From the sequence record OR565851: a DNA stretch of 36,753 bases, one strand, 5' to 3'. The notes under the pieces are model-generated. The model was not told where the DNA came from. It ran no database searches and worked only from the letters and a program-made list of their open reading frames with translations. This document shows, in pieces, positions 3,561 through 36,560 of this stretch (position 1 is its first letter; the number at the start of each line of letters is the position of its first letter). The DNA comes from Citrobacter phage Shae_phiSM. A program made the translations under genes and the position numbers.

Positions 3561-4745
3561 ATGAGTGAAACTCGTTTTCATGGTGCCCGTGTTACGGAAA
3601 ATACCGACCTGGTAACAGCGATTAACGATGTTGATTCCAGCGTTATCGGTATCGTGGCAACGGCGGATGATGCGGACGCGGAGCTGTTCCCGCTGAACAA
3701 GCCCACACTGCTGACCCGCGTCAATGACGTGCTGGGAAAATGCGGAACAACGGGGACGCTTTATCGTGCGCTTAAGGCCATCGCAGACCAGGTGAGCACA
3801 AAGGTGATCGTCGTTCGCGTGGCTGAACACAAAGAAGAAGACGGAAAGACGCAGGATCAACTGGTTATCGGTGGTTCTGAGGATGACGGCAGCTATACGG
3901 GGATGTATGCGCTGCTTGTTGCAGAGCAGGATGAAAGCATCGGATACCGTCCGCGTATTCTGGCCGCGCCGGAGCTGGACACGGAGGCGGTAACAAAATC
4001 CCTGTGCGTGATTGCGGGTAAACTGCGCGCGTTTGTGTATGCCACATGTCATGGTTGTAACACGATGGCTGAGGCGATTACCTACCGCCAGAAATTCAAC
4101 GAACGTGAGGTGATGCTCTTATGGCCTGACTTCATCGCCTACAACCCGAAAAGTGGCAAAAACGAAACGTTCCCCGCGCCTGCTTATGCGTGCGGCCTTC
4201 GTGCGTACATTGACCATGAGCAGGGCTGGCACAAATCGCTGTCCAACGTTCCGGTTAAAAATGTGCTGGGAATGTCCAGGCATGTGTTCTGGTCGTTGCA
4301 GGCCGAAGACAGTGATGCCAACAGCCTCAATAACAAAGAAATCACGACCATTATTCGTCGCAACGGGCTCCGCTTCTGGGGCAACCGCACACCGGAAACG
4401 AACGCCTACATCTTTGAGGTGTATACCCGAACCGCACAGGTGCTGGCTGATTCAATTGCGGAAGCGCAGTTTGAAACCATCGACAGTCCACTGACGCCTG
4501 CGAACGTGAAGGATGTTATCAGTGCCATCAGGGCAAAACTGGATTCGCTGGTTACTGCCGGGAAACTGATTGGTGCGGAGTGCTGGTATGACGTGGTGGA
4601 TAACGGCACCACGAATTTACGTCAGGGACGTGTGCGTATTCGCTACAAATATACGCCCGTTCCGCCACTGGAAGACATGGAGCTTTACCAGACGTTTACT
4701 GATGAATTCTTTGGTCCCGCATTTGCGGTGCTGGGAGGTGCCTGA
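3561..4745 (+). CDS. FI: contractile tail sheath protein
   Basis: 394-aa ORF with SD AAGGGG; P2 FI-like sequence and size; stop overlaps the FII start (ATGA). Confidence 0.9.
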   Translation: MSETRFHGARVTENTDLVTAINDVDSSVIGIVATADDADAELFPLNKPTLLTRVNDVLGKCGTTGTLYRALKAIADQVSTKVIVVRVAEHKEEDGKTQDQLVIGGSEDDGSYTGMYALLVAEQDESIGYRPRILAAPELDTEAVTKSLCVIAGKLRAFVYATCHGCNTMAEAITYRQKFNEREVMLLWPDFIAYNPKSGKNETFPAPAYACGLRAYIDHEQGWHKSLSNVPVKNVLGMSRHVFWSLQAEDSDANSLNNKEITTIIRRNGLRFWGNRTPETNAYIFEVYTRTAQVLADSIAEAQFETIDSPLTPANVKDVISAIRAKLDSLVTAGKLIGAECWYDVVDNGTTNLRQGRVRIRYKYTPVPPLEDMELYQTFTDEFFGPAFAVLGGA

Positions 4746-25085: not shown

Positions 25086-25112
25086 CGCGCTTCGCTTGTC
25101 TGCTGCTTCGCC

Positions 25113-25135
25113 GGGGCATAAAAAATTTATGCCCC
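25113..25135. repeat. hairpin downstream of Q (terminator or packaging-region element)
   Basis: ggggcataaa-aaa-tttatgcccc, 10-bp perfect stem; no following T-run. Confidence 0.35.
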
Positions 25136-25509
25136 GACTCTCCAGCTCCTGTATCAATCAGATAATTTCACGACGCCTTCCAGTATATCGCCACCATCGA
25201 CGGTCAGACTCTTACGCAATCCCACCGCGTTGACTGTATTTTCTCGCCGCCTCAGTGCGATTTTGACGGCCTTACCTTTCACCCCATCAAATCAAAAGCC
25301 CTCACGTCTTTTTCACGCTCAGCGTGAGAAATATGGACATTCTGTTGTGTCGCTGCGACATCGCTCAGGGAATGCTATTTACCTCCTGAAACGCGGGCTG
25401 TTCCCCCGTCACCTGCGCGCAGAAAAAACGCGTTTTTTTGTGCACGCACGGATCCTTGACGGATCCAGCCGCCACGCGGGCCGGAAGGGCAAAAAGTCGT
25501 TCAAAAAAA

Positions 25510-25536
25510 TTGTGCAAATTTGTGCACTATTGTGCA
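25510..25536. repeat. three direct repeats of TTGTGCA at exact 10-bp spacing (iteron/operator-like)
   Basis: ttgtgcaaat ttgtgcacta ttgtgcag; helical phasing suggests a regulator binding site; lies upstream of a TTGACA -35-like hexamer at 25557-25562. Confidence 0.5.
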
Positions 25537-25695
25537 GTCAGAAAATGGCCATATATTTGACATGCGGGTTAGCTTTGCGTTAATTTGGATTGACTAAAAA
25601 TTTCAGTGAATCGGGCGAAGTGGATCTGTAAACACAAAATCCCGGTTAACTAAGTAACGTTAATCTAAGAACATGTTTGAAGCGGAGGGGTTAAT

Positions 25696-25731
25696 ATGAA
25701 AAAAGTGTTTGATGAATTTGATGGTTTCTAA
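25696..25731 (+). CDS. 11-codon leader ORF (MKKVFDEFDGF)
   Basis: ATG 6 nt after SD GGAGGGG, stop TAA; ends 20 nt before a terminator hairpin that abuts the downstream gene. Confidence 0.45.
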   Translation: MKKVFDEFDGF

Positions 25732-25750
25732 ATGCGTTAACCTCTATGAG

Positions 25751-25776
25751 GCGGAGAGTCTATCTCCGCCTTTTTT
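25751..25776 (+). terminator. intrinsic terminator/attenuator just upstream of the hotspot membrane-protein gene
   Basis: gcggaga-gtcta-tctccgc followed by TTTTTT; T-tract ends 15 nt before the ATG at 25792, with SD AAGGA in between. Confidence 0.6.
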
Positions 25777-25791
25777 ATGGGTGAAGGAAAG

Positions 25792-26295
25792 ATGACTCTG
25801 GATTCAACAGCGATACAAATCATTAGTAACGTGATAGTCCTGTTTGGCGTCATAGTTGCTATCTGCACGATTATCTATAACATTCGTACAGCCAAAAAAA
25901 CACAGACTGCTAATTTTTTATTTGAAAGTCGCCAGGACAAAGAATACCTGGAATCGCTACATCTTCTCAGACGCATTCATCGTTCAGGAAAATCGTTTCG
26001 TGCTTATGTCTTTCCCTGTGAAGGCGGGGTGATTACGGAAGAAGAGATGACTGAACGTCGCAAATTCCAGTACATTCTTAACTTTTATGAGAGAGTGGCC
26101 GTAAGTATCCGTGAAGGGATTTACGATGAAAGGATGATTAAGCGAACATCCTTTACAACGGTCGTTACGACTTATGATATTGCGGAACCCCTGATTAAAG
26201 CCATCAGAGAGGATACCCAATCAAAAACGGCTTACCAGGAATTTGAGTGGTTGGTGAAGAGATGGAAAGCCAGGCCACTTGAGAAAGATGTGTAG
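25792..26295 (+). CDS. membrane-anchored protein of unknown function (one N-terminal TM helix plus ~130-aa cytoplasmic domain); candidate defence/exclusion cargo
   Basis: ORF 25777..26295 trimmed to the ATG at 25792 (SD AAGGA); TM helix IQIISNVIVLFGVIVAICTIIYNI; about 40% GC; sits where P2 carries old/tin between gene A and the packaging genes. Confidence 0.7.
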   Translation: MTLDSTAIQIISNVIVLFGVIVAICTIIYNIRTAKKTQTANFLFESRQDKEYLESLHLLRRIHRSGKSFRAYVFPCEGGVITEEEMTERRKFQYILNFYERVAVSIREGIYDERMIKRTSFTTVVTTYDIAEPLIKAIREDTQSKTAYQEFEWLVKRWKARPLEKDV

Positions 26296-26316
26296 ATCTT
26301 CTGATTGGTTGTATTG

Positions 26317-26356
26317 GAACGGGGTGCATAGTGCTTTGCACCCCGTTCTTTATGTT
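26317..26356 (+). terminator. rho-independent terminator after the membrane-protein gene
   Basis: gaacggggtgca-tagtgctt-tgcaccccgttc, 12-bp stem, followed by tttatgtt. Confidence 0.65.
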
Positions 26357-26385
26357 GTGAGATGGGATATCGGGGCGAATACGTG

Positions 26386-26697
26386 TTATTCGGGAAATAA
26401 CGCCCGGATATTTCCGGCCATCTGACAGGTTATCTGTGCGGTTGGTGCTGGTTGTGATACGGGGCGTTCTGTCCTGGTTTGCGTCAGGGATAACGCTTCA
26501 TCGTCAGCCCATGCAGCCAGTCGGTAAGCCTCTGCCGGATTCATTTTCAGAAGTGCCAGCCCTGCCAGAAAAGCCACGCGTTGGCCACTTTTGCGGGCTT
26601 CTGGTGTAAGGCTGTCCAGCCAGGCGCATGCTTCGCCTTCGTTCTTGACGGCGGCGGGCTTCAGATAGAAACTTATCCGTCTGGTTGGTGTCGTCAT
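26386..26697 (-). CDS. parR: ParR-like centromere-binding adaptor (ribbon-helix-helix)
   Basis: ORF trimmed to ATG 26697 (SD AAGGAG); RRISFYLKPAAVKNEGEACAWLDSLTPEARKSGQRVAFLAGLALL resembles the plasmid R1 ParR N-terminus as I recall it; directly downstream of the parM-like gene. Confidence 0.65.
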   Translation of the reverse strand: MTTPTRRISFYLKPAAVKNEGEACAWLDSLTPEARKSGQRVAFLAGLALLKMNPAEAYRLAAWADDEALSLTQTRTERPVSQPAPTAQITCQMAGNIRALFPE

Positions 26698-26701
26698 TGG
26701 T

Positions 26702-27661
26702 TTACTCCTTGTCCATTGCGTACAGCCCATTAACCAGAGCAAACTGTGGCACCCCGTCCGCGATGAAAGTCGCATTAACTCCGCAGGCTTCGCGGATAGC
26801 GGGTGCCACAATCTCCGCCCCGCCACCGACAACCATCACCCGCCCGTAACCCGAAAAACCCGCCAGCGCGCGGATCACGCGTTGTTTCAGTGTTTCTTCC
26901 TTTTCACGAATAACCGCCATCAGGCTGGCGTAATGCGCGTCATTGTGGATGTGCTGGCGCAACCAGGCTTCATCATGGCGATGTTCGATAATGGTATTGG
27001 CGATGTGGTGACTGGTACGCATACCGTTAGTGGCCATCACCGACAGTACGGCATCGGCCATCAGGGAAACGCCTACGTGTGGATCGCAAAACACCTGGCT
27101 GATACCTGCCAGTTGTCCCTGAACCTTTGCCACATCCAGCGTGGTTCCGCCCAAATCCACAATCAGCAGGGATTCAAACGGACTCATGTCAGCCAGTGCT
27201 TTAAAGCCAGCCGGAATGGATTCAGGCATAACCCGTACATTACGGATAGTGAATGCCTCACCGTTCTGGTACTCCACCGGGCGCATAACGTTCGCTTTTT
27301 TGCGGTTGATGTTGGTCATATCCGGCTGGGCGTTTGTGTCGAAATACTCGCTCAGTGGCAGGGTGACAACAACATCCACCTCCTGTGGCGTGATGCCTGA
27401 TTTGACCAGCGCGTGATGAATGGCAATGACATTCACATCGCTGTACTGGTATTGCGTGTCGGTCGTCTGGACAAAGCGATCGCTGACCGGATCAAAACCA
27501 TAGCGCACGCCATCAAGCATATAGTTCGCGGGCTGCGTGCCACCGAACGGCGCAGACCATTCCGACTTGAAGCTGTTCGGGCTGATGGCGTTGCGGCGTT
27601 CGCCGTTCTCAGTCCATGCCAGCTTGATGTTGGTGGAGCCGTCGTCGATACAAATTTTCAT
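26702..27661 (-). CDS. parM: ParM/StbA-like actin-type segregation ATPase
   Basis: 319 aa; MKICIDDGSTNIKLAW...YSDVNVIAIHHAL...LIVDLGGTTLDV...VMVVGGGAEI matches the ParM actin-fold motifs (R1 ParM begins MLVFIDDGSTNIKLQW from memory); SD AAGGA. Confidence 0.85.
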   Translation of the reverse strand: MKICIDDGSTNIKLAWTENGERRNAISPNSFKSEWSAPFGGTQPANYMLDGVRYGFDPVSDRFVQTTDTQYQYSDVNVIAIHHALVKSGITPQEVDVVVTLPLSEYFDTNAQPDMTNINRKKANVMRPVEYQNGEAFTIRNVRVMPESIPAGFKALADMSPFESLLIVDLGGTTLDVAKVQGQLAGISQVFCDPHVGVSLMADAVLSVMATNGMRTSHHIANTIIEHRHDEAWLRQHIHNDAHYASLMAVIREKEETLKQRVIRALAGFSGYGRVMVVGGGAEIVAPAIREACGVNATFIADGVPQFALVNGLYAMDKE

Positions 27662-27692
27662 GTCGTTTTTCCTTATGTTGATTAATTAATCG

Positions 27693-27803
27693 TTTACGGG
27701 ATTCTGAAATCCCGTTTTTGCCTGTTTTATGCGCGCTTCATATATCGCGGCGCGTTTTTTGCTCATTTACGGGATTTGTGAATCCCGTTTTTGTCTGTTT
27801 TTT
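27693..27803. repeat. two ~36-bp direct repeats, each with an internal hairpin (parC-like or recombination footprint)
   Basis: 27693-27728 tttacgggattctgaaatcccgtttttgcctgtttt and 27766-27803 tttacgggatttgtgaatcccgtttttgtctgtttttt, about 86% identical; the second copy lies within the last ~20 codons of gene A, the first in the A-parM intergenic region. Confidence 0.6.
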
Positions 27804-30560
27804 GTTTCCACTGGTCAGGCCACCCCGCAGCAGGTCTGCTTTGCGGCGGGCGCGTTCAGTGGTTTCACTGATTCTCTGTGCGTGCTCTGCGTCGCGGATG
27901 GCGCGCAGCATGTCAGAAAGCACGGTAACGGGTGTTTTCATGGTGTTCTGGTCTTGCTGAAGTGTGGATGCCAGGCGTGCGGCGGCTTCAGGGTCTGATA
28001 CCCCCAGCTGTTCCAGATAGCTGGCGACCGGGTTATGGCGGATCTCCGTGCTGCTTACGCCGTGATTACGGCTCAGGCGTTGCCAGAGCTGCGTGATTCG
28101 GCTGTCCGGGCGGGTATCCGGTTTGCGTACAATTTCAAATCCCTGCGGTGCAATGATGCTGCCGTCAACGTACAGACTGCCGCCCCGTAACAGGTGCTGC
28201 ATCTGCTGTTCACCGATATGCAGGCCGAGAGATTCAGCAGACTCCCGCCATTCTTTAGCGAGTAATTCGTGGTTATCAGGCAAAGGCCGCGGCTGTTTGC
28301 GGCTCTGTGTCCAGCTCTGCATTTCATCACTGCTGTTTTTTGCCTGTTTGTCACGAAGCGAACGCATCAGCGCCCGGCGTTCGTGCCGTTTCAGTGAGCG
28401 CATCCATTCATTCACTTCAACGCCGTCAGGAAGCTGCGGCCACGGTGTTGGCCGTTCTTCCGGCTGTTCTGTCCCGTTGTTGTCCGTTTCTTGTACACTG
28501 GGACAGTTATTGCCACGAGTCCAAGGGGCGGCAGGGCCGCCCTGAAGGTCAAAACCATTTTCGTGGGCGCTGCCTTCCTGTTCCGGTTTACGTCTTACCA
28601 GCTTCCAGTTATCCGGGTGCGTGCACACACGGGAGGATTCCCCGATGAGTGGTGACCAGATCCCGTAAATCTGTACACTCTGTTCGCCGTAATCGTTCAG
28701 CTCATCGGCGAGGTCGTAGGCGGTGCGAATCAGGTAGTCTTTGCGTGGAACAAGTACGCCGCCCTGTTTCTCTATGTAGGTGGCAAAACATCCGGCATCA
28801 GCGGCAGCGAGTACCGCATCCATTGCGTCATCCTTCAGCCGTTGCGGGCCTTCCGGGTTGCGTGCCATCTGGCTGGCAAGGCGGCGGAGTTCACGCCACA
28901 CCTGACGGGAGGGGATGCCAAAGAACTGGAACTGGCGGACCCGGTGAAGGCGTGCCCAACCGATGGCGCGCTCCACGCTCTCGGCCATTGATTTTCCGGT
29001 TTCGTGGTCAACGCGTGGTTTGCCCGTTTTCGGGTCGATGCCATCCACGGCGCGGCTGTCCAGGTTTTTCCCGATGTAGGTCGCGATATAGCTGGTTGGT
29101 GTGCCTTTTGAGCCGTCGACATACTCCACTTTAAAGCGCGGAGTAATATCATTGCCCAGCTCGTGGCGGTCTTCCTGAATGGCAATATCGCGGGTGATGG
29201 CCACGATGCTGTCGATTTCTTCCGGATGAGCAAAGACCATCATATGCCAGTGCACGGTGCCGTCATGGTGAGGCTCCACCGTGCGGATGCCATACCAGCG
29301 CAGGCCGTCGCGGTTCAGTTTTTTGCGGACCGCCGCAAAAAACGTGTTAACCAGGTAATCGCTGGAGTCGCGCATGGTGGCCCCGTTCCATTTGGGGTTC
29401 GGATGACCGTTCTCCGTTGTTGCGTGGTATTTTGACGGGCAGGTGACAGTCAGAAACACCGCTCTGTCGCCACGGGCTTCGGCCAGAAGTTCCAGTCCCT
29501 TCATGGTGGCCATCATTTCTGCCTTACGGTGAACCGGGTTACTTACTCCCGCGTAATACACTGTCTCGAGATCAATCGTGAACCCGTCTTCGTTTTCCAG
29601 CATGAAACTTTTCAGGAAATCGCGTGTTTTCTCGCGCTGTGCGCGAAACTCGCTTAACGCGTCCTGGCTCAGATAGGGCGATGTTTTTCTGGAAACCAGA
29701 CAGGCGGCGCGGAGTTGTTCTTCTCTCCACTCGCAACGTAACAGCCATAGTTTGCGTTTCCACCATTCCGCACAGGTCAGGCGAAGGATTGCGCCCGGCA
29801 GCAGCTCTGTGTCCGGTTCGTTCCTCCGGTCTTTGTCTGTTGTCAGTGCGTCATAATGTGGAGGCATGGCGTGCAGGTGTAACGCCATGCGGGCCAGCAT
29901 CTGATACGCCTTCAGCGTTACATCCATGGTCAGTTCGCCATCAGTCGCGCCAAAGCCATCGCAGAGTTTTTCGAAGGTGCTGCTGAACATCGCCGCCGTC
30001 ATGGTGGCCAGCGTCTGTATCTGGTGTTTGTTGAGCTGCGGCAGGTAAAGCAAATCGTCCAGGCGTTCGCGTCCAGCAAGGGAGCGATAACCCGGTGTCA
30101 GCCAGCGGTGATCGGTGCGGTCCAGACGTTCGAATATTTTGCGCAGGGTTCCGCGTGCATAGCGTTCCGCCTGCCAGCTCTTTTTGCCTTTCCGGCGATC
30201 GGCTTCCTGTTTTTTGCGCAGGAAGGAGAGGTGGCGAATAAGCGGATCGCGCAGATAGGACGGCAGCAGGCGCAGCGAGGCCATGGCTTCATCCACCGCG
30301 CCGCGTGCCTGTTTTCTGGCGTCTCCTGCCAGTGTGATGGTTTTGTCCTGTTTTTCCTGTGCGTCCAAGCTTTTATTAATCAGGTTGCCCAGCGGCGTGG
30401 CGGAGAACGCCGCATCAGCCATTTCCTGGCGGCGCTCGTTCTCTACCCGGTAGGCACCCAGCCAGGAGGAAAGCGCGGATTCAGGAGCGGGGATCCCCGT
30501 TCCTTCACGCCCCACCGCGTGGCGCGGTTGTTGCCAGTCCCTGATGTACTCTGCCGTCAT
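27738..30560 (-). CDS. A: rolling-circle replication initiation endonuclease (gpA family)
   Basis: 940-aa ORF with HUH-like motif TVHWHMMVF; gpA-like; longer than I recall for P2 A, so start or extensions are uncertain. Confidence 0.85.
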   Translation of the reverse strand: MTAEYIRDWQQPRHAVGREGTGIPAPESALSSWLGAYRVENERRQEMADAAFSATPLGNLINKSLDAQEKQDKTITLAGDARKQARGAVDEAMASLRLLPSYLRDPLIRHLSFLRKKQEADRRKGKKSWQAERYARGTLRKIFERLDRTDHRWLTPGYRSLAGRERLDDLLYLPQLNKHQIQTLATMTAAMFSSTFEKLCDGFGATDGELTMDVTLKAYQMLARMALHLHAMPPHYDALTTDKDRRNEPDTELLPGAILRLTCAEWWKRKLWLLRCEWREEQLRAACLVSRKTSPYLSQDALSEFRAQREKTRDFLKSFMLENEDGFTIDLETVYYAGVSNPVHRKAEMMATMKGLELLAEARGDRAVFLTVTCPSKYHATTENGHPNPKWNGATMRDSSDYLVNTFFAAVRKKLNRDGLRWYGIRTVEPHHDGTVHWHMMVFAHPEEIDSIVAITRDIAIQEDRHELGNDITPRFKVEYVDGSKGTPTSYIATYIGKNLDSRAVDGIDPKTGKPRVDHETGKSMAESVERAIGWARLHRVRQFQFFGIPSRQVWRELRRLASQMARNPEGPQRLKDDAMDAVLAAADAGCFATYIEKQGGVLVPRKDYLIRTAYDLADELNDYGEQSVQIYGIWSPLIGESSRVCTHPDNWKLVRRKPEQEGSAHENGFDLQGGPAAPWTRGNNCPSVQETDNNGTEQPEERPTPWPQLPDGVEVNEWMRSLKRHERRALMRSLRDKQAKNSSDEMQSWTQSRKQPRPLPDNHELLAKEWRESAESLGLHIGEQQMQHLLRGGSLYVDGSIIAPQGFEIVRKPDTRPDSRITQLWQRLSRNHGVSSTEIRHNPVASYLEQLGVSDPEAAARLASTLQQDQNTMKTPVTVLSDMLRAIRDAEHAQRISETTERARRKADLLRGGLTSGNKKQTKTGFTNPVNEQKTRRDI

Positions 30561-34735: not shown

Positions 34736-35023
34736 TTAAAGCCCCAGCCACAACAACCATGCATCGCGGCGTTCTTTCGGCTGATCAAAAAACGCTTTGC
34801 GCATACCTGCGTTAAATGCTGGCAGATATACCCAGTTTTCTGATGCTCGCGTCTTCACTGAACCTGGTTTTACAAAGTCAATCGTTGGTAACTTTGCAGC
34901 GTCAATCATGGTTCTGACGGTTGATTCTTTGCGACCAATCATCTTGGCAAATAGTTGATATGGCACCGCTTCAAGTGGATATGGTGCTACCTGAATGAAC
35001 CCCTCAAGCTCTGATTCGCTCAT
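34736..35023 (-). CDS. cox: Cox-like excisionase / transcriptional regulator
   Basis: 95 aa; ...PYQLFAKMIGRKESTVRTMIDAAKLPTIDF...ENWVYLPAFNAG...RDAWLLWLGL resembles P2 Cox; divergent from C. Confidence 0.8.
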   Translation of the reverse strand: MSESELEGFIQVAPYPLEAVPYQLFAKMIGRKESTVRTMIDAAKLPTIDFVKPGSVKTRASENWVYLPAFNAGMRKAFFDQPKERRDAWLLWLGL

Positions 35024-35138
35024 TGTGGTAATCTCCTTAATTCGTCCAAATGGCCCAAAATGGCTTATATAGGCTTATTTTGGCTATTTGAATGTTTTGT
35101 ATCACATGTAACCCAATAGCATGGAGTTTAGATCACAT
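35024..35138. promoter_or_regulatory. immunity-region operator / divergent promoters between cox and C
   Basis: Four 10-bp-phased repeats tggcccaaaa / tggcttatat / aggcttattt / tggctatttg at 35051-35090, like the direct-repeat operators of P2-type C repressors. Confidence 0.55.
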
Positions 35139-35459
35139 ATGATCCATAAATCAAGCCTTGGAGAAAAACTTCGCCTGATTCGAGAGGCAGAGGGATTGTC
35201 ACGTAGAGAGATGGAGGAGGTGACAGGGGTATCTCAATACAATCTCAAAAATTATGAAATATTGGGAAGAATGATACCTGGAGAAACGTTACTCCTGATT
35301 TTGAATCATCCTCGTTTTCGGAAGTATTCGGATTGGGTGATGTTTAATCAAACTAATGCTGCGACGGGGCAGATTGCTCCGCCTCTCTCTCTTGATGGCT
35401 TCTTCGATTCGGAGGGCGATCAGGTTTCAACCGAAACAAACCAAAAATCACCCCGCTAA
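35139..35459 (+). CDS. C: immunity repressor C (HTH)
   Basis: ORF 35121..35459; start placed at ATG 35139 by alignment to P2 C; C-terminal ...GQIAPPLSLDGFFDSE... resembles P2 C; start uncertain. Confidence 0.75.
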   Translation: MIHKSSLGEKLRLIREAEGLSRREMEEVTGVSQYNLKNYEILGRMIPGETLLLILNHPRFRKYSDWVMFNQTNAATGQIAPPLSLDGFFDSEGDQVSTETNQKSPR

Positions 35460-35555
35460 GGCCAGAAAACTGGTTAGACCTGCTCTTTGTCTGGTCTGAT
35501 TATTGCTGGAAAGAGGCTGGAGAAATTGTAGGGCGGTTCATTGGAGGGCTTCGCA

Positions 35556-36560
35556 ATGTCAATTAAGAAGCTCGAAGATGGTCGTTATTTGCTGGACATC
35601 AGGCCGAACGGACGCAAGGGAAAGCGCGTGCGTAAGGTATTTGACAAAAAATCGGTAGCGGTGGCCACTGAACGCTACATCATGGCGAACGCTGAAAAGC
35701 GGGAATATATACAGGGCTACCGTGATCGCCGAACGCTAAATGATTTGCTTGAGTTGTGGTGGATGTATCACGGTCAACACAGGCGTAAGGCGGAAGAAGA
35801 CCGAAAACAACTGTGCAACATAATCAATGAGCTTGGCGCTGATATGCAGGCTGTGGATCTTGATAAGCTGAAAATTATCGCGTGGCGTTCTCAAAAGATA
35901 GCTGCTGGATTGAAACCGTCATCTGCTAACAGGTACATGAACCGACTATCCGGCATGTTTACTGTTCTGAAAAGAATAGGCCTTTGGGATGCAGAACATC
36001 CGGTAAGGGGAATTTCTATTCTTTATGTATCCCCGCGAGAAATGGCTTTCCTGTCCCAGAAGGAAGTAGCGCTATTGCTCGATACACTGGAGGGCGACTA
36101 CTGGCGTGTTGCGCTTTTGTGTTTAAGCACAGGGGCGCGCTGGAGTGAAGCTTGTAAGCTTCGTGGTGAACAGATAGTTCATAACCGTGTAACGTTTCTT
36201 GAAACCAAAAATGGCCGGAAGAGAACGGTGCCAATTTCACAGGCGGTTTGTGAGGCGATCAGAACCAGAGAAACAGGCAACTTGTTTGAGGTGAAGTACC
36301 GGGAATTCTGCCTAGCGCTGAAAAGGGTTAAGCCCGATTTGCCAAAAGGCCAGGCTGCGCATGTGCTGCGGCATACGTTCGCCAGCCATTTTGTGATGAA
36401 CGGAGGAAACATTATTGCGCTTCAGAAGATTCTTGGCCACGCAACCATTCAGCAAACAATGGCATATGCACATTTTGCACCGGATTACCTGCAGGATGCG
36501 GTGGCCCTTAATCCGCTGAAAGGTGGCGTGAGTGTCCACGCAGTGTCCACGGGGGATTAA
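35556..36560 (+). CDS. int: tyrosine integrase (P2 Int family)
   Basis: ORF 35541..36560 trimmed to ATG 35556 (SD GGAGGG); MSIKKLEDGRYLLDIRPNGRKGKR... N-terminus and C-terminal HxxR...Y catalytic-region pattern (...HVLRHTFASHF...GHATIQQTMAYAHF). Confidence 0.9.
   Translation: MSIKKLEDGRYLLDIRPNGRKGKRVRKVFDKKSVAVATERYIMANAEKREYIQGYRDRRTLNDLLELWWMYHGQHRRKAEEDRKQLCNIINELGADMQAVDLDKLKIIAWRSQKIAAGLKPSSANRYMNRLSGMFTVLKRIGLWDAEHPVRGISILYVSPREMAFLSQKEVALLLDTLEGDYWRVALLCLSTGARWSEACKLRGEQIVHNRVTFLETKNGRKRTVPISQAVCEAIRTRETGNLFEVKYREFCLALKRVKPDLPKGQAAHVLRHTFASHFVMNGGNIIALQKILGHATIQQTMAYAHFAPDYLQDAVALNPLKGGVSVHAVSTGD

Follow-up and report, generated by a model that had tools for sequence, protein, structure and literature searches.

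What does a DNA-segregation system of the plasmid type do in a phage that integrates into the chromosome of its host? The question is raised by Citrobacter phage Shae_phiSM (sequence record OR565851), of which we analysed a stretch of 36,753 nucleotides (nt), hereafter the window. Its minus strand carries, next to the replication gene A, the genes of an actin-fold ATPase, ParM, and of a small adaptor protein, ParR, preceded by two repeats. The first-pass annotation of this DNA had seen here a complete partition module within a P2-like prophage, and we do find a complete ParM and ParR pair with a repeat element at the position of the plasmid centromere parC, in a P2-family prophage with int, C and cox. 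At the level of sequence, we identify the locus as an intact type II (ParMRC-type) DNA-segregation system, of which the centromere and the activity are predicted. Judged by its distribution, parMR is a lineage-fixed core of the early replication block in P88-like phages and no exchangeable cargo. The assignment is built on the following features.

26386-26697, minus strand: parR, encoding an adaptor of 103 amino acids (aa); Pfam Plasmid_stab_B 2.2e-24, PHROG 2515
26702-27661, minus strand: parM, encoding an actin-fold ATPase of 319 aa; matches to Pfam and to the structure of R1 ParM
27670-27674, minus strand: Shine-Dalgarno sequence of parM, AAGGA, read from the sequence and invariant in the aligned loci
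27690-27731, minus strand: repeat 1, proximal and intergenic, an A-rich tract with a palindrome (27696-27715); candidate ParR site
27732-27762, minus strand: spacer between the repeats, with the stop codon of A (27738-27740) and a short GC-rich inverted repeat around GATATAT
27763-27804, minus strand: repeat 2, distal, in the last codons of gene A, an A-rich tract with a palindrome (27769-27788)
27738-30560, minus strand: gene A, rolling-circle replication endonuclease of 940 aa, directly upstream of parM and co-oriented with it; Pfam Phage_GPA 1.8e-130
28503-28532, minus strand: putative origin (nick site of A), placed from its homology to the nick site annotated in P2; predicted nick near 28524/28525

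The 319-aa protein had first drawn attention by its ParM/StbA motifs, and the profile searches suggested at that stage as a check bear this out. Residues 1-157 match Pfam StbA_N at 2.9e-82, residues 159-316 match the ParM C-terminal domain at 1.3e-68, and the structure of ParM from plasmid R1 (1mwk) aligns end to end with residues 2-316 (E 8.9e-93). The phosphate- and adenosine-binding motifs DDGSTNIK, MPESIPAG, DLGGTTLD and GGGAE align with those of R1 ParM, and the nucleotide-binding positions are invariant in a comparison with two plasmid ParMs. In other words, the protein has both domains and the nucleotide-binding motifs of the actin-fold ATPase of type II systems; only the NCBIfam profiles, with nothing but sub-threshold matches, were uninformative. 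Purifying selection on this full-length actin-fold ATPase is strong, stronger than that acting on gene A. In comparisons with the copies of P88, 520873, O157, Cronobacter and Hafnia, the ratio of non-synonymous to synonymous substitution rates (dN/dS) is 0.02-0.07 for parM, as against 0.18-0.25 for A and 0.20-0.50 for parR. The Hafnia copy gives the sharpest contrast: ParM is 94.6% identical whereas the A protein is 62% identical, with dS of 0.65 for parM and 1.52 for A. That parM is so much more conserved than the adjoining A could reflect its more recent spread or an extra constraint on it.

No plasmid-borne ParM in PLSDB exceeds 52% identity to the phage protein, which leaves a gap between them and the phage ParM clade, where identity is at least 95%; the phage ParR had no match among plasmid ParRs (tblastn, 1e-3). 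Because of these two results we reject a recent capture from a plasmid, and the phage ParM is, as far as sequence identities can tell, an old and phage-specific clade.

The parR gene starts 4 nt past the stop codon of parM, on the same minus strand. Its product, described at first as resembling the N-terminus of ParR, has now been matched by profile: residues 6-76 align with positions 1-71 of the 72 positions of Pfam Plasmid_stab_B (ParR/StbB family) at 2.2e-24, and the match to PHROG 2515, 'partition protein', reaches 8.7e-58. Three parts can be told apart, namely an N-terminal domain (residues 1-67), a hypervariable linker (68-94) and a conserved C-terminal tail, N-I-x-x-L-F-P-E. Across an alignment of 20 ParR alleles the strand RRISFYLKP is invariant, the linker varies and the tail is conserved, and the terminal motif N-I-x-x-[LFM]-F-P-[EDKQ] is common to the ParRs of IncI and IncF plasmids. 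By this alignment the build of ParR is canonical, with a conserved N-terminal domain predicted to bind DNA, a variable linker and a conserved tail. A small adaptor gene with an N-terminal DNA-binding domain directly downstream of parM is what type II systems have, and the locus agrees with this, the ribbon-helix-helix fold of the domain being predicted. An AlphaFold2 monomer of low confidence (predicted local distance difference test score, pLDDT, 55) has helices in 20-61, disorder in 62-88 and a C-terminal helix in 89-100; the model was too poor for a fold search. No match to ParR was found among PDB sequences. As to variation within the gene, there are two main classes of parR alleles, ~52% identical to each other (window 26386-26697 compared with 3741-4055 of locus L004), and recombination breakpoints fall inside the gene at 26474-26626. 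The linker is hypervariable and both ends are fixed.

The two direct repeats noticed earlier upstream of parM proved to be real and slightly longer than the ~36 bp first given. A repeat finder delimits two copies of 42 nt each, 83% identical and 73 bp apart from start to start, and each holds a perfect palindrome with 8-bp arms, ACGGGATT-N4-AATCCCGT, containing GGGATT-N4-AATCCC. One copy, repeat 2, does overlap the last codons of gene A, as had been said. The 19-nt core of the repeat occurs exactly twice in the window, both times at the A/parM locus; at up to 3 mismatches there are 4 sites compared with 0.11 expected from shuffles, and no further good copy of the palindrome is present in the window. 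The junction running from A through the repeats to parM is shared by 88 loci with 61 distinct sequences, with both repeats, their orientation and the 73-bp spacing kept, and the two inner G-C pairs of the palindrome (GG/CC) are invariant across the 61 sequences. In Hafnia the flanks have diverged and the stop codon of A has moved into the loop of the distal palindrome; since both palindromes and the 73-bp spacing persist there, the conservation of the repeats is independent of the reading frame of A. Within the spacer, GCGATATAT is replaced by CATAAAACA in some alleles, so that GATATAT is not a conserved -10 element.

From this arrangement we infer that the two repeats are the two halves of a parC-like centromere bound by ParR. 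ParR would bind both GGGATT-N4-AATCCC palindromes, whose own half-sites are 10 bp apart centre to centre, i.e. one helical turn, and this would suit a dimer of dimers of a ribbon-helix-helix protein on one face of the DNA. A distance of 73 bp corresponds to seven turns, and the two palindromes would therefore lie on the same face as well. We also considered the repeats as a replication origin and rejected this, given that the homologue of the P2 nick site lies inside A at ~28524, ~720 bp away.

How common the module is in its lineage had been left open, and the answer is that it is essentially universal. The window is a P88-like prophage of the genus Xuanwuvirus, family Peduoviridae, by nucleotide similarity to P88 and synteny with it: identity to P88, 520873, 503458, P884B11, PhiR44_2 and Chuche is 94-97% over the shared parts of 25086-27810, and gene A is 90-97% identical to that of P88 and relatives. 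In the phage collection, the records with this type of gene A and the records with this parM are the same 13 (13/13). The only other phage record there with a ParM homologue is the plasmid prophage D6, at 48% identity, and among the other Peduoviridae records, P2 and 186 included, none has a ParM homologue at E<=1e-5. Among 5426 complete genomes of Escherichia coli, parMR DNA is found in 1307 (24%) at 1455 places and the gene A type in 1375 at 1540 places; 1453 of the 1455 parMR places are chromosomal, and the carriers include O157:H7, O104:H4 and O145 strains. The order A-parM-parR is fixed in every fetched locus with upstream DNA, the loci having been taken from IMG/VR, E. albertii, Citrobacter, Cronobacter, Hafnia and O157:H7 remnants. 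Two further searches suit counting rather than questions of deep divergence: a viral contig search with a ParM alignment returned 80 loci, all 99-100% identical, and a genome contig search with a single ParM returned three near-identical ones. Prophage ParM and ParR were not found in the searched part of the proteome supplements for O157:H7 (PMC3210124).

The block formed by A and parMR is joined to two sets of portal and terminase genes that are only ~30% identical to each other, and it thus travels with the replication gene and not with the head genes. The second of these sets belongs to another group of P2-family prophages, with a portal ~30% identical to Q of the window, a different terminase and the same A-parM-parR (ParM 99%); examples are L007 (7344-10158), L022, L035-L037, L056, L059, L061, L062, L065, L090 and L095, mostly with the 52-53% parR allele. 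Since these loci share A-parM-parR, the replication and partition block is exchanged as a unit between structural lineages. In decayed remnants (L004 2706-5019, from O157:H7 strain 3-5-1, and L010 6332-7346), insertion sequence (IS) elements abut parR where Q and P would be expected. A and parM are intact open reading frames in both remnants; parR is intact in L004, and in L010 its middle is apparently frameshifted twice.

The gene upstream of parM is a relative of A of phage P2 (30% identical, E 2e-78). The P2 record places a replication origin at 29892, inside A, and the corresponding alignment (P2 GCCGCGCCTCGGAGTCCTGTCAATAACTGT, window GCCGCCCCTTGGACTCGTGGCAATAACTGT) puts the putative origin of the window ~720 bp from the repeats. 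The A protein has 940 aa compared with 761 aa in P2, the excess lying at both ends of the alignment and in internal gaps, and its last ~140 residues have no P2 counterpart. As regards expression, no sigma-70-like promoter was found on the minus strand of 27662-28200, either by consensus scan or by eye, although weak promoters can escape such a scan; a par promoter inside the centromere and autoregulated by ParR, the usual type II arrangement, was accordingly not seen in this simple scan. A terminator scan found no minus-strand terminator between A and parM. With neither a promoter nor a terminator detected between A and parM, parMR is therefore probably expressed with the replication genes, by read-through from the early operon. 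The window also has the genes expected of an integrating phage.

35541-36560: Int, tyrosine integrase
35121-35459: helix-turn-helix repressor (C)
34736-35023: Cox

On its other side, parR borders a region of quite different behaviour.

25555-26385: variable cargo slot, the gpA-gpQ hotspot of the P2 family, defined by homology breakpoints, with the parR stop codon as one edge
25777-26295, plus strand: DUF4760 gene, cargo in the slot; Pfam 1.7e-35, PHROG 2284 (unknown function)
26316-26349, plus strand: hairpin terminator following the DUF4760 gene, from the terminator scan

Of 89 loci, 53 lose the homology that runs through parM at the parR stop codon (26383-26387), and those with the alternative parR allele lose it inside parR; from the Q side, homology ends at ~25536-25554. 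The exchange boundary is the parR stop codon, where the hotspot begins. This settles two points raised by the earlier reading, which had proposed a comparison of the A-Q interval and had suspected, from the overlap of a repeat with A, an exchange of cassettes at the 3' end of that gene. The comparison confirms A-parM-parR as a fixed, linked module, whereas the exchange happens at the parR stop codon and not at the end of A, where the junction is kept even in Hafnia.

Some observations on the surroundings may be added. The DUF4760 protein has 172 aa and an N-terminal hydrophobic segment, has no counterpart in the 89 related loci compared, and is a candidate for an uncharacterised exclusion or defence gene. 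The cos site is probably at ~25536-25670, near where homology from the Q side ends, and the linear record end of phage 500465-2 maps to ~25667 by extrapolation of the match. At the left end of the prophage, a gene on the minus strand (165-1058) encodes a protein of 297 aa with a type VI secretion system (T6SS) VasI domain (5.1e-25); its match in phage PhiSM of Citrobacter rodentium, a relative, is ORF1, given there as a 'T6SS VasI family protein' (PMC6456863).

It is against this background that the role of the module has to be judged. We tentatively favour, at a little less than even confidence, a function in inheritance comparable to that of srpMRC in integrative and conjugative elements (ICEs), i.e. 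the segregation of free circles. In our analysis, parMR would be made only while the phage genome is a free circle that replicates by the rolling-circle mode, after infection or after excision. The tail of ParR would capture growing ParM filaments, and circular phage genomes bound by ParR would be pushed apart. The circles would be distributed to both daughter cells, so that the element would not be lost before integration or re-integration; upkeep of a permanent plasmid prophage would not be the role of the module. Several considerations weigh against this proposal. P2-type rolling-circle replication normally ends in lysis, and dividing cells with free circles in need of partitioning may be infrequent. 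Binding of ParR to the repeats is a prediction, and plasmid parC regions of the same ParR family are T-rich arrays of many repeats whereas here there are two palindromes, which could form an operator rather than a centromere. The absence of a promoter in a simple scan is no proof that A and parMR are co-transcribed. The literature searched contained neither an experiment on a P88-like parMR module nor a publication on the function of the module, and sequence data do not separate inheritance from a lytic role of the kind known for AlpAC of a Corynebacterium prophage.

P2-family phages package from monomeric circles, and in such a lytic role ParMR filaments would move or position the replicating circles, with a gain in the efficiency of replication and packaging and in burst size, not in inheritance. 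There is a precedent in prophage CGP3, where AlpC and AlpA are required for efficient phage DNA replication (PMC4446434). The setting of parMR would agree with it too: the genes lie in the replication block directly behind A, close to the putative origin and with no promoter of their own found, they accompany A rather than the head genes, and purifying selection on parM exceeds that on A. Yet since P2, 186 and other Peduoviridae replicate well with no ParM homologue, a function of this kind cannot be a general need of the replication mode, and we regard it as a rather unlikely explanation, if one to be taken seriously. The first-pass annotation had considered an episomal, phage-plasmid way of life, which remains speculation and had already been suggested in print (Rousset et al., PMC9122126). 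By this proposal the prophage would be a stable low-copy plasmid in some hosts or conditions, e.g. when attB is missing. What speaks for it, besides the ParM of the plasmid prophage D6, is a complete circular 'plasmid' record of 34,461 bp, NZ_CP148288.1, which is a whole P88-like phage. This record (L003) was deposited as an E. coli plasmid and has int, cox, A, parMR and all structural genes; it lies outside the collection of E. coli genomes used for our counts. However, plasmid typing of the circle names no replicon, and a single record of this sort can be an excised replicating phage caught by the assembly, which makes it weak evidence. It is the one stand-alone 34.5-kb circle to be set against the 1453 of 1455 places that are chromosomal, and P2-type A genes occur in 21 plasmid records, each of them a replicon of 66-730 kb with an integrated prophage and none a stand-alone phage circle. 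The phage has an integrase, Cox, a repressor, a P2-type gpA and a P2-like origin inside A; rolling-circle A, in a repressor-controlled early block, is the sole replication function seen, and the block has no plasmid-type replicon that we could see. The module is also kept in the decayed chromosomal remnants beside IS elements. Life as a stable plasmid prophage is unlikely to be the rule, and we consider even its facultative form improbable. A match to a 26.8-kb Shigella 'plasmid', examined as a possible episome, proved to be a linear piece of a decayed prophage and was therefore rejected.

The location of the module between gpA and gpQ, a described defence hotspot (PMC9122126) in which P2 carries tin and old at the same map position, invites the thought that parMR is itself cargo of the hotspot and acts against incoming plasmids or phages by exclusion, defence or incompatibility, like tin/old. 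Here the fit is poorest. PADLOC models gave no match at E<=1 to ParM, ParR or the neighbouring DUF4760 protein; the module is fixed to one type of A and the variable slot starts only at the parR stop codon; and parMR is placed as a continuation of the early operon, whereas tin and old are on the other strand with their own promoter (P2 record). Moreover, the phage has both the DNA-reading strand of ParR and the repeats, each of them conserved, and this points to its own genome as the target; we think a defence role hardly credible. The same repeats could, in principle, be something other than a centromere, either intrinsic terminators on the plus strand against antisense transcription into A or RNA or single-stranded DNA hairpins for processing or priming, in which case ParR would bind elsewhere or serve as a regulator only. 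Indeed, both palindromes are followed by a T-run on the plus strand and are listed as terminator-like in the scan, and the region folds far better than shuffles (z = -5.8 for DNA, -5.4 for RNA). Nonetheless, no plus-strand transcription runs towards the repeats across the 1.3 kb of antisense DNA, and behind the cargo gene there is already a plus-strand terminator of far greater strength. The z-scores are trivial because two copies of one palindrome are present. Across the 61 sequences no palindrome pair has undergone a double compensatory change, and the single changes are G-U-tolerable on opposite strands in the two copies, a pattern of variation that fits a protein-binding site better than a hairpin. 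The conserved unit also reaches 18 nt beyond the palindrome on one side, and the spacing of the two units is fixed. We have accordingly rejected the repeats as RNA or DNA hairpins, and the alternative as a whole, with terminators or hairpins in place of a centromere, seems to us very improbable.

How much of this is new? RefSeq labels the proteins 'plasmid segregation protein ParM' and 'partition protein' or 'plasmid partitioning/stability family protein', so the module is already annotated, and the idea of plasmid maintenance is already published (PMC9122126); for these reasons the sequence observation as such adds nothing. What our analysis adds is modest, namely the status of the module as a lineage-fixed core, the start of the hotspot at the parR stop codon and a defined two-palindrome candidate centromere. 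The value of the module lies in an easily testable functional question rather than in a discovery, a question that bears on how temperate phages survive the free-circle stage and on how sharp the line is between prophages, ICEs and plasmids. It is tempting to speculate, although we hold this to be doubtful, that P88-like phages apply an actin spindle of plasmid origin to their own genomes during the rolling-circle stage, for a heritable episomal state or for actin-organised replication. If so, infection and integration would be bridged by an episomal state (carrier or pseudolysogenic) that can be inherited, or else actin would drive phage replication in a Gram-negative host, and the two 42-bp palindrome repeats where A meets parM would form a minimal centromere of two sites. 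Either outcome would demonstrate a functional ParMRC for the first time in an integrating tailed phage of enterobacteria, and the phages concerned occur in about a quarter of E. coli genomes.

Among known systems, ParMRC of plasmid R1 is the natural point of reference. Its ParM aligns end to end with the phage protein with the motifs intact (structures 1mwk, 4a62, 5aey), and the nearest plasmid ParMs are ~52% identical. The order of cis site, parM and parR is the same, ParR is in Plasmid_stab_B in both cases, and the tail motif is common to plasmid ParRs. The differences begin with the host replicon, which is here an integrating rolling-circle phage. The plasmid ParRs compared (IncI, IncF) have 138-140 aa, in contrast to the 103 aa of the phage ParR. 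The arrays upstream of plasmid parM genes are T-rich and consist of many iterons, and parC of R1 has ten 11-bp iterons; the cis site of the phage consists of two 42-nt palindrome repeats with no promoter detected inside.

Nearer to hand are two systems of enterobacterial phages. The StbA-type genes of D6 include a ParM 48% identical to that of the window, and a note in the record reads 'similar to phage P88 StbA protein'. D6, however, is a 91-kb P1-like plasmid prophage, in which a partition system is expected, and its ParR partner is a separate allele. The gpA-gpQ hotspot of P2-like phages (tin/old; PMC9122126) occupies the same map interval as parMR, and Rousset et al. 2022 count a partition system among its contents, in about a quarter of the P2-like prophages of E. 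coli. Unlike the contents of a hotspot, parMR behaves as a core tied to one type of gpA, with the slot starting after it.

Two systems of integrated elements come closest to the situation of parMR. In AlpAC/alpS of the Corynebacterium prophage CGP3, the adaptor AlpA of the actin-like AlpC binds upstream of its own operon (PMC4446434, PMC5539076); induction of both proteins comes early once the prophage has excised, they connect circular phage DNA with filaments, and efficient replication requires them (PMC4446434). As here, an integrated prophage has an actin-like ATPase and a DNA adaptor, co-transcribed in CGP3 and predicted to be co-transcribed in the case of parMR. On the other hand, AlpC is a distant actin-like protein, the host is Gram-positive, the gene order is another one, and the phenotype is one of replication and not of partition. 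The srpMRC locus of the SXT/R391 ICEs stabilises both the element and a mini-replicon, with a centromere of only four 13-bp repeats and a promoter that depends on the activator of the element (PMC4489591). SrpM and SrpR are distant from ParM and ParR of R1, whereas the phage ParM is a close homologue of ParM; srpMR is in an operon with int, whereas the phage parMR is behind the replication gene; and SXT/R391 elements are conjugative and no viruses. What the two share is a type II actin-type locus on a normally integrated element that has an integrase and, when excised, becomes a rolling circle (PMC4489591).

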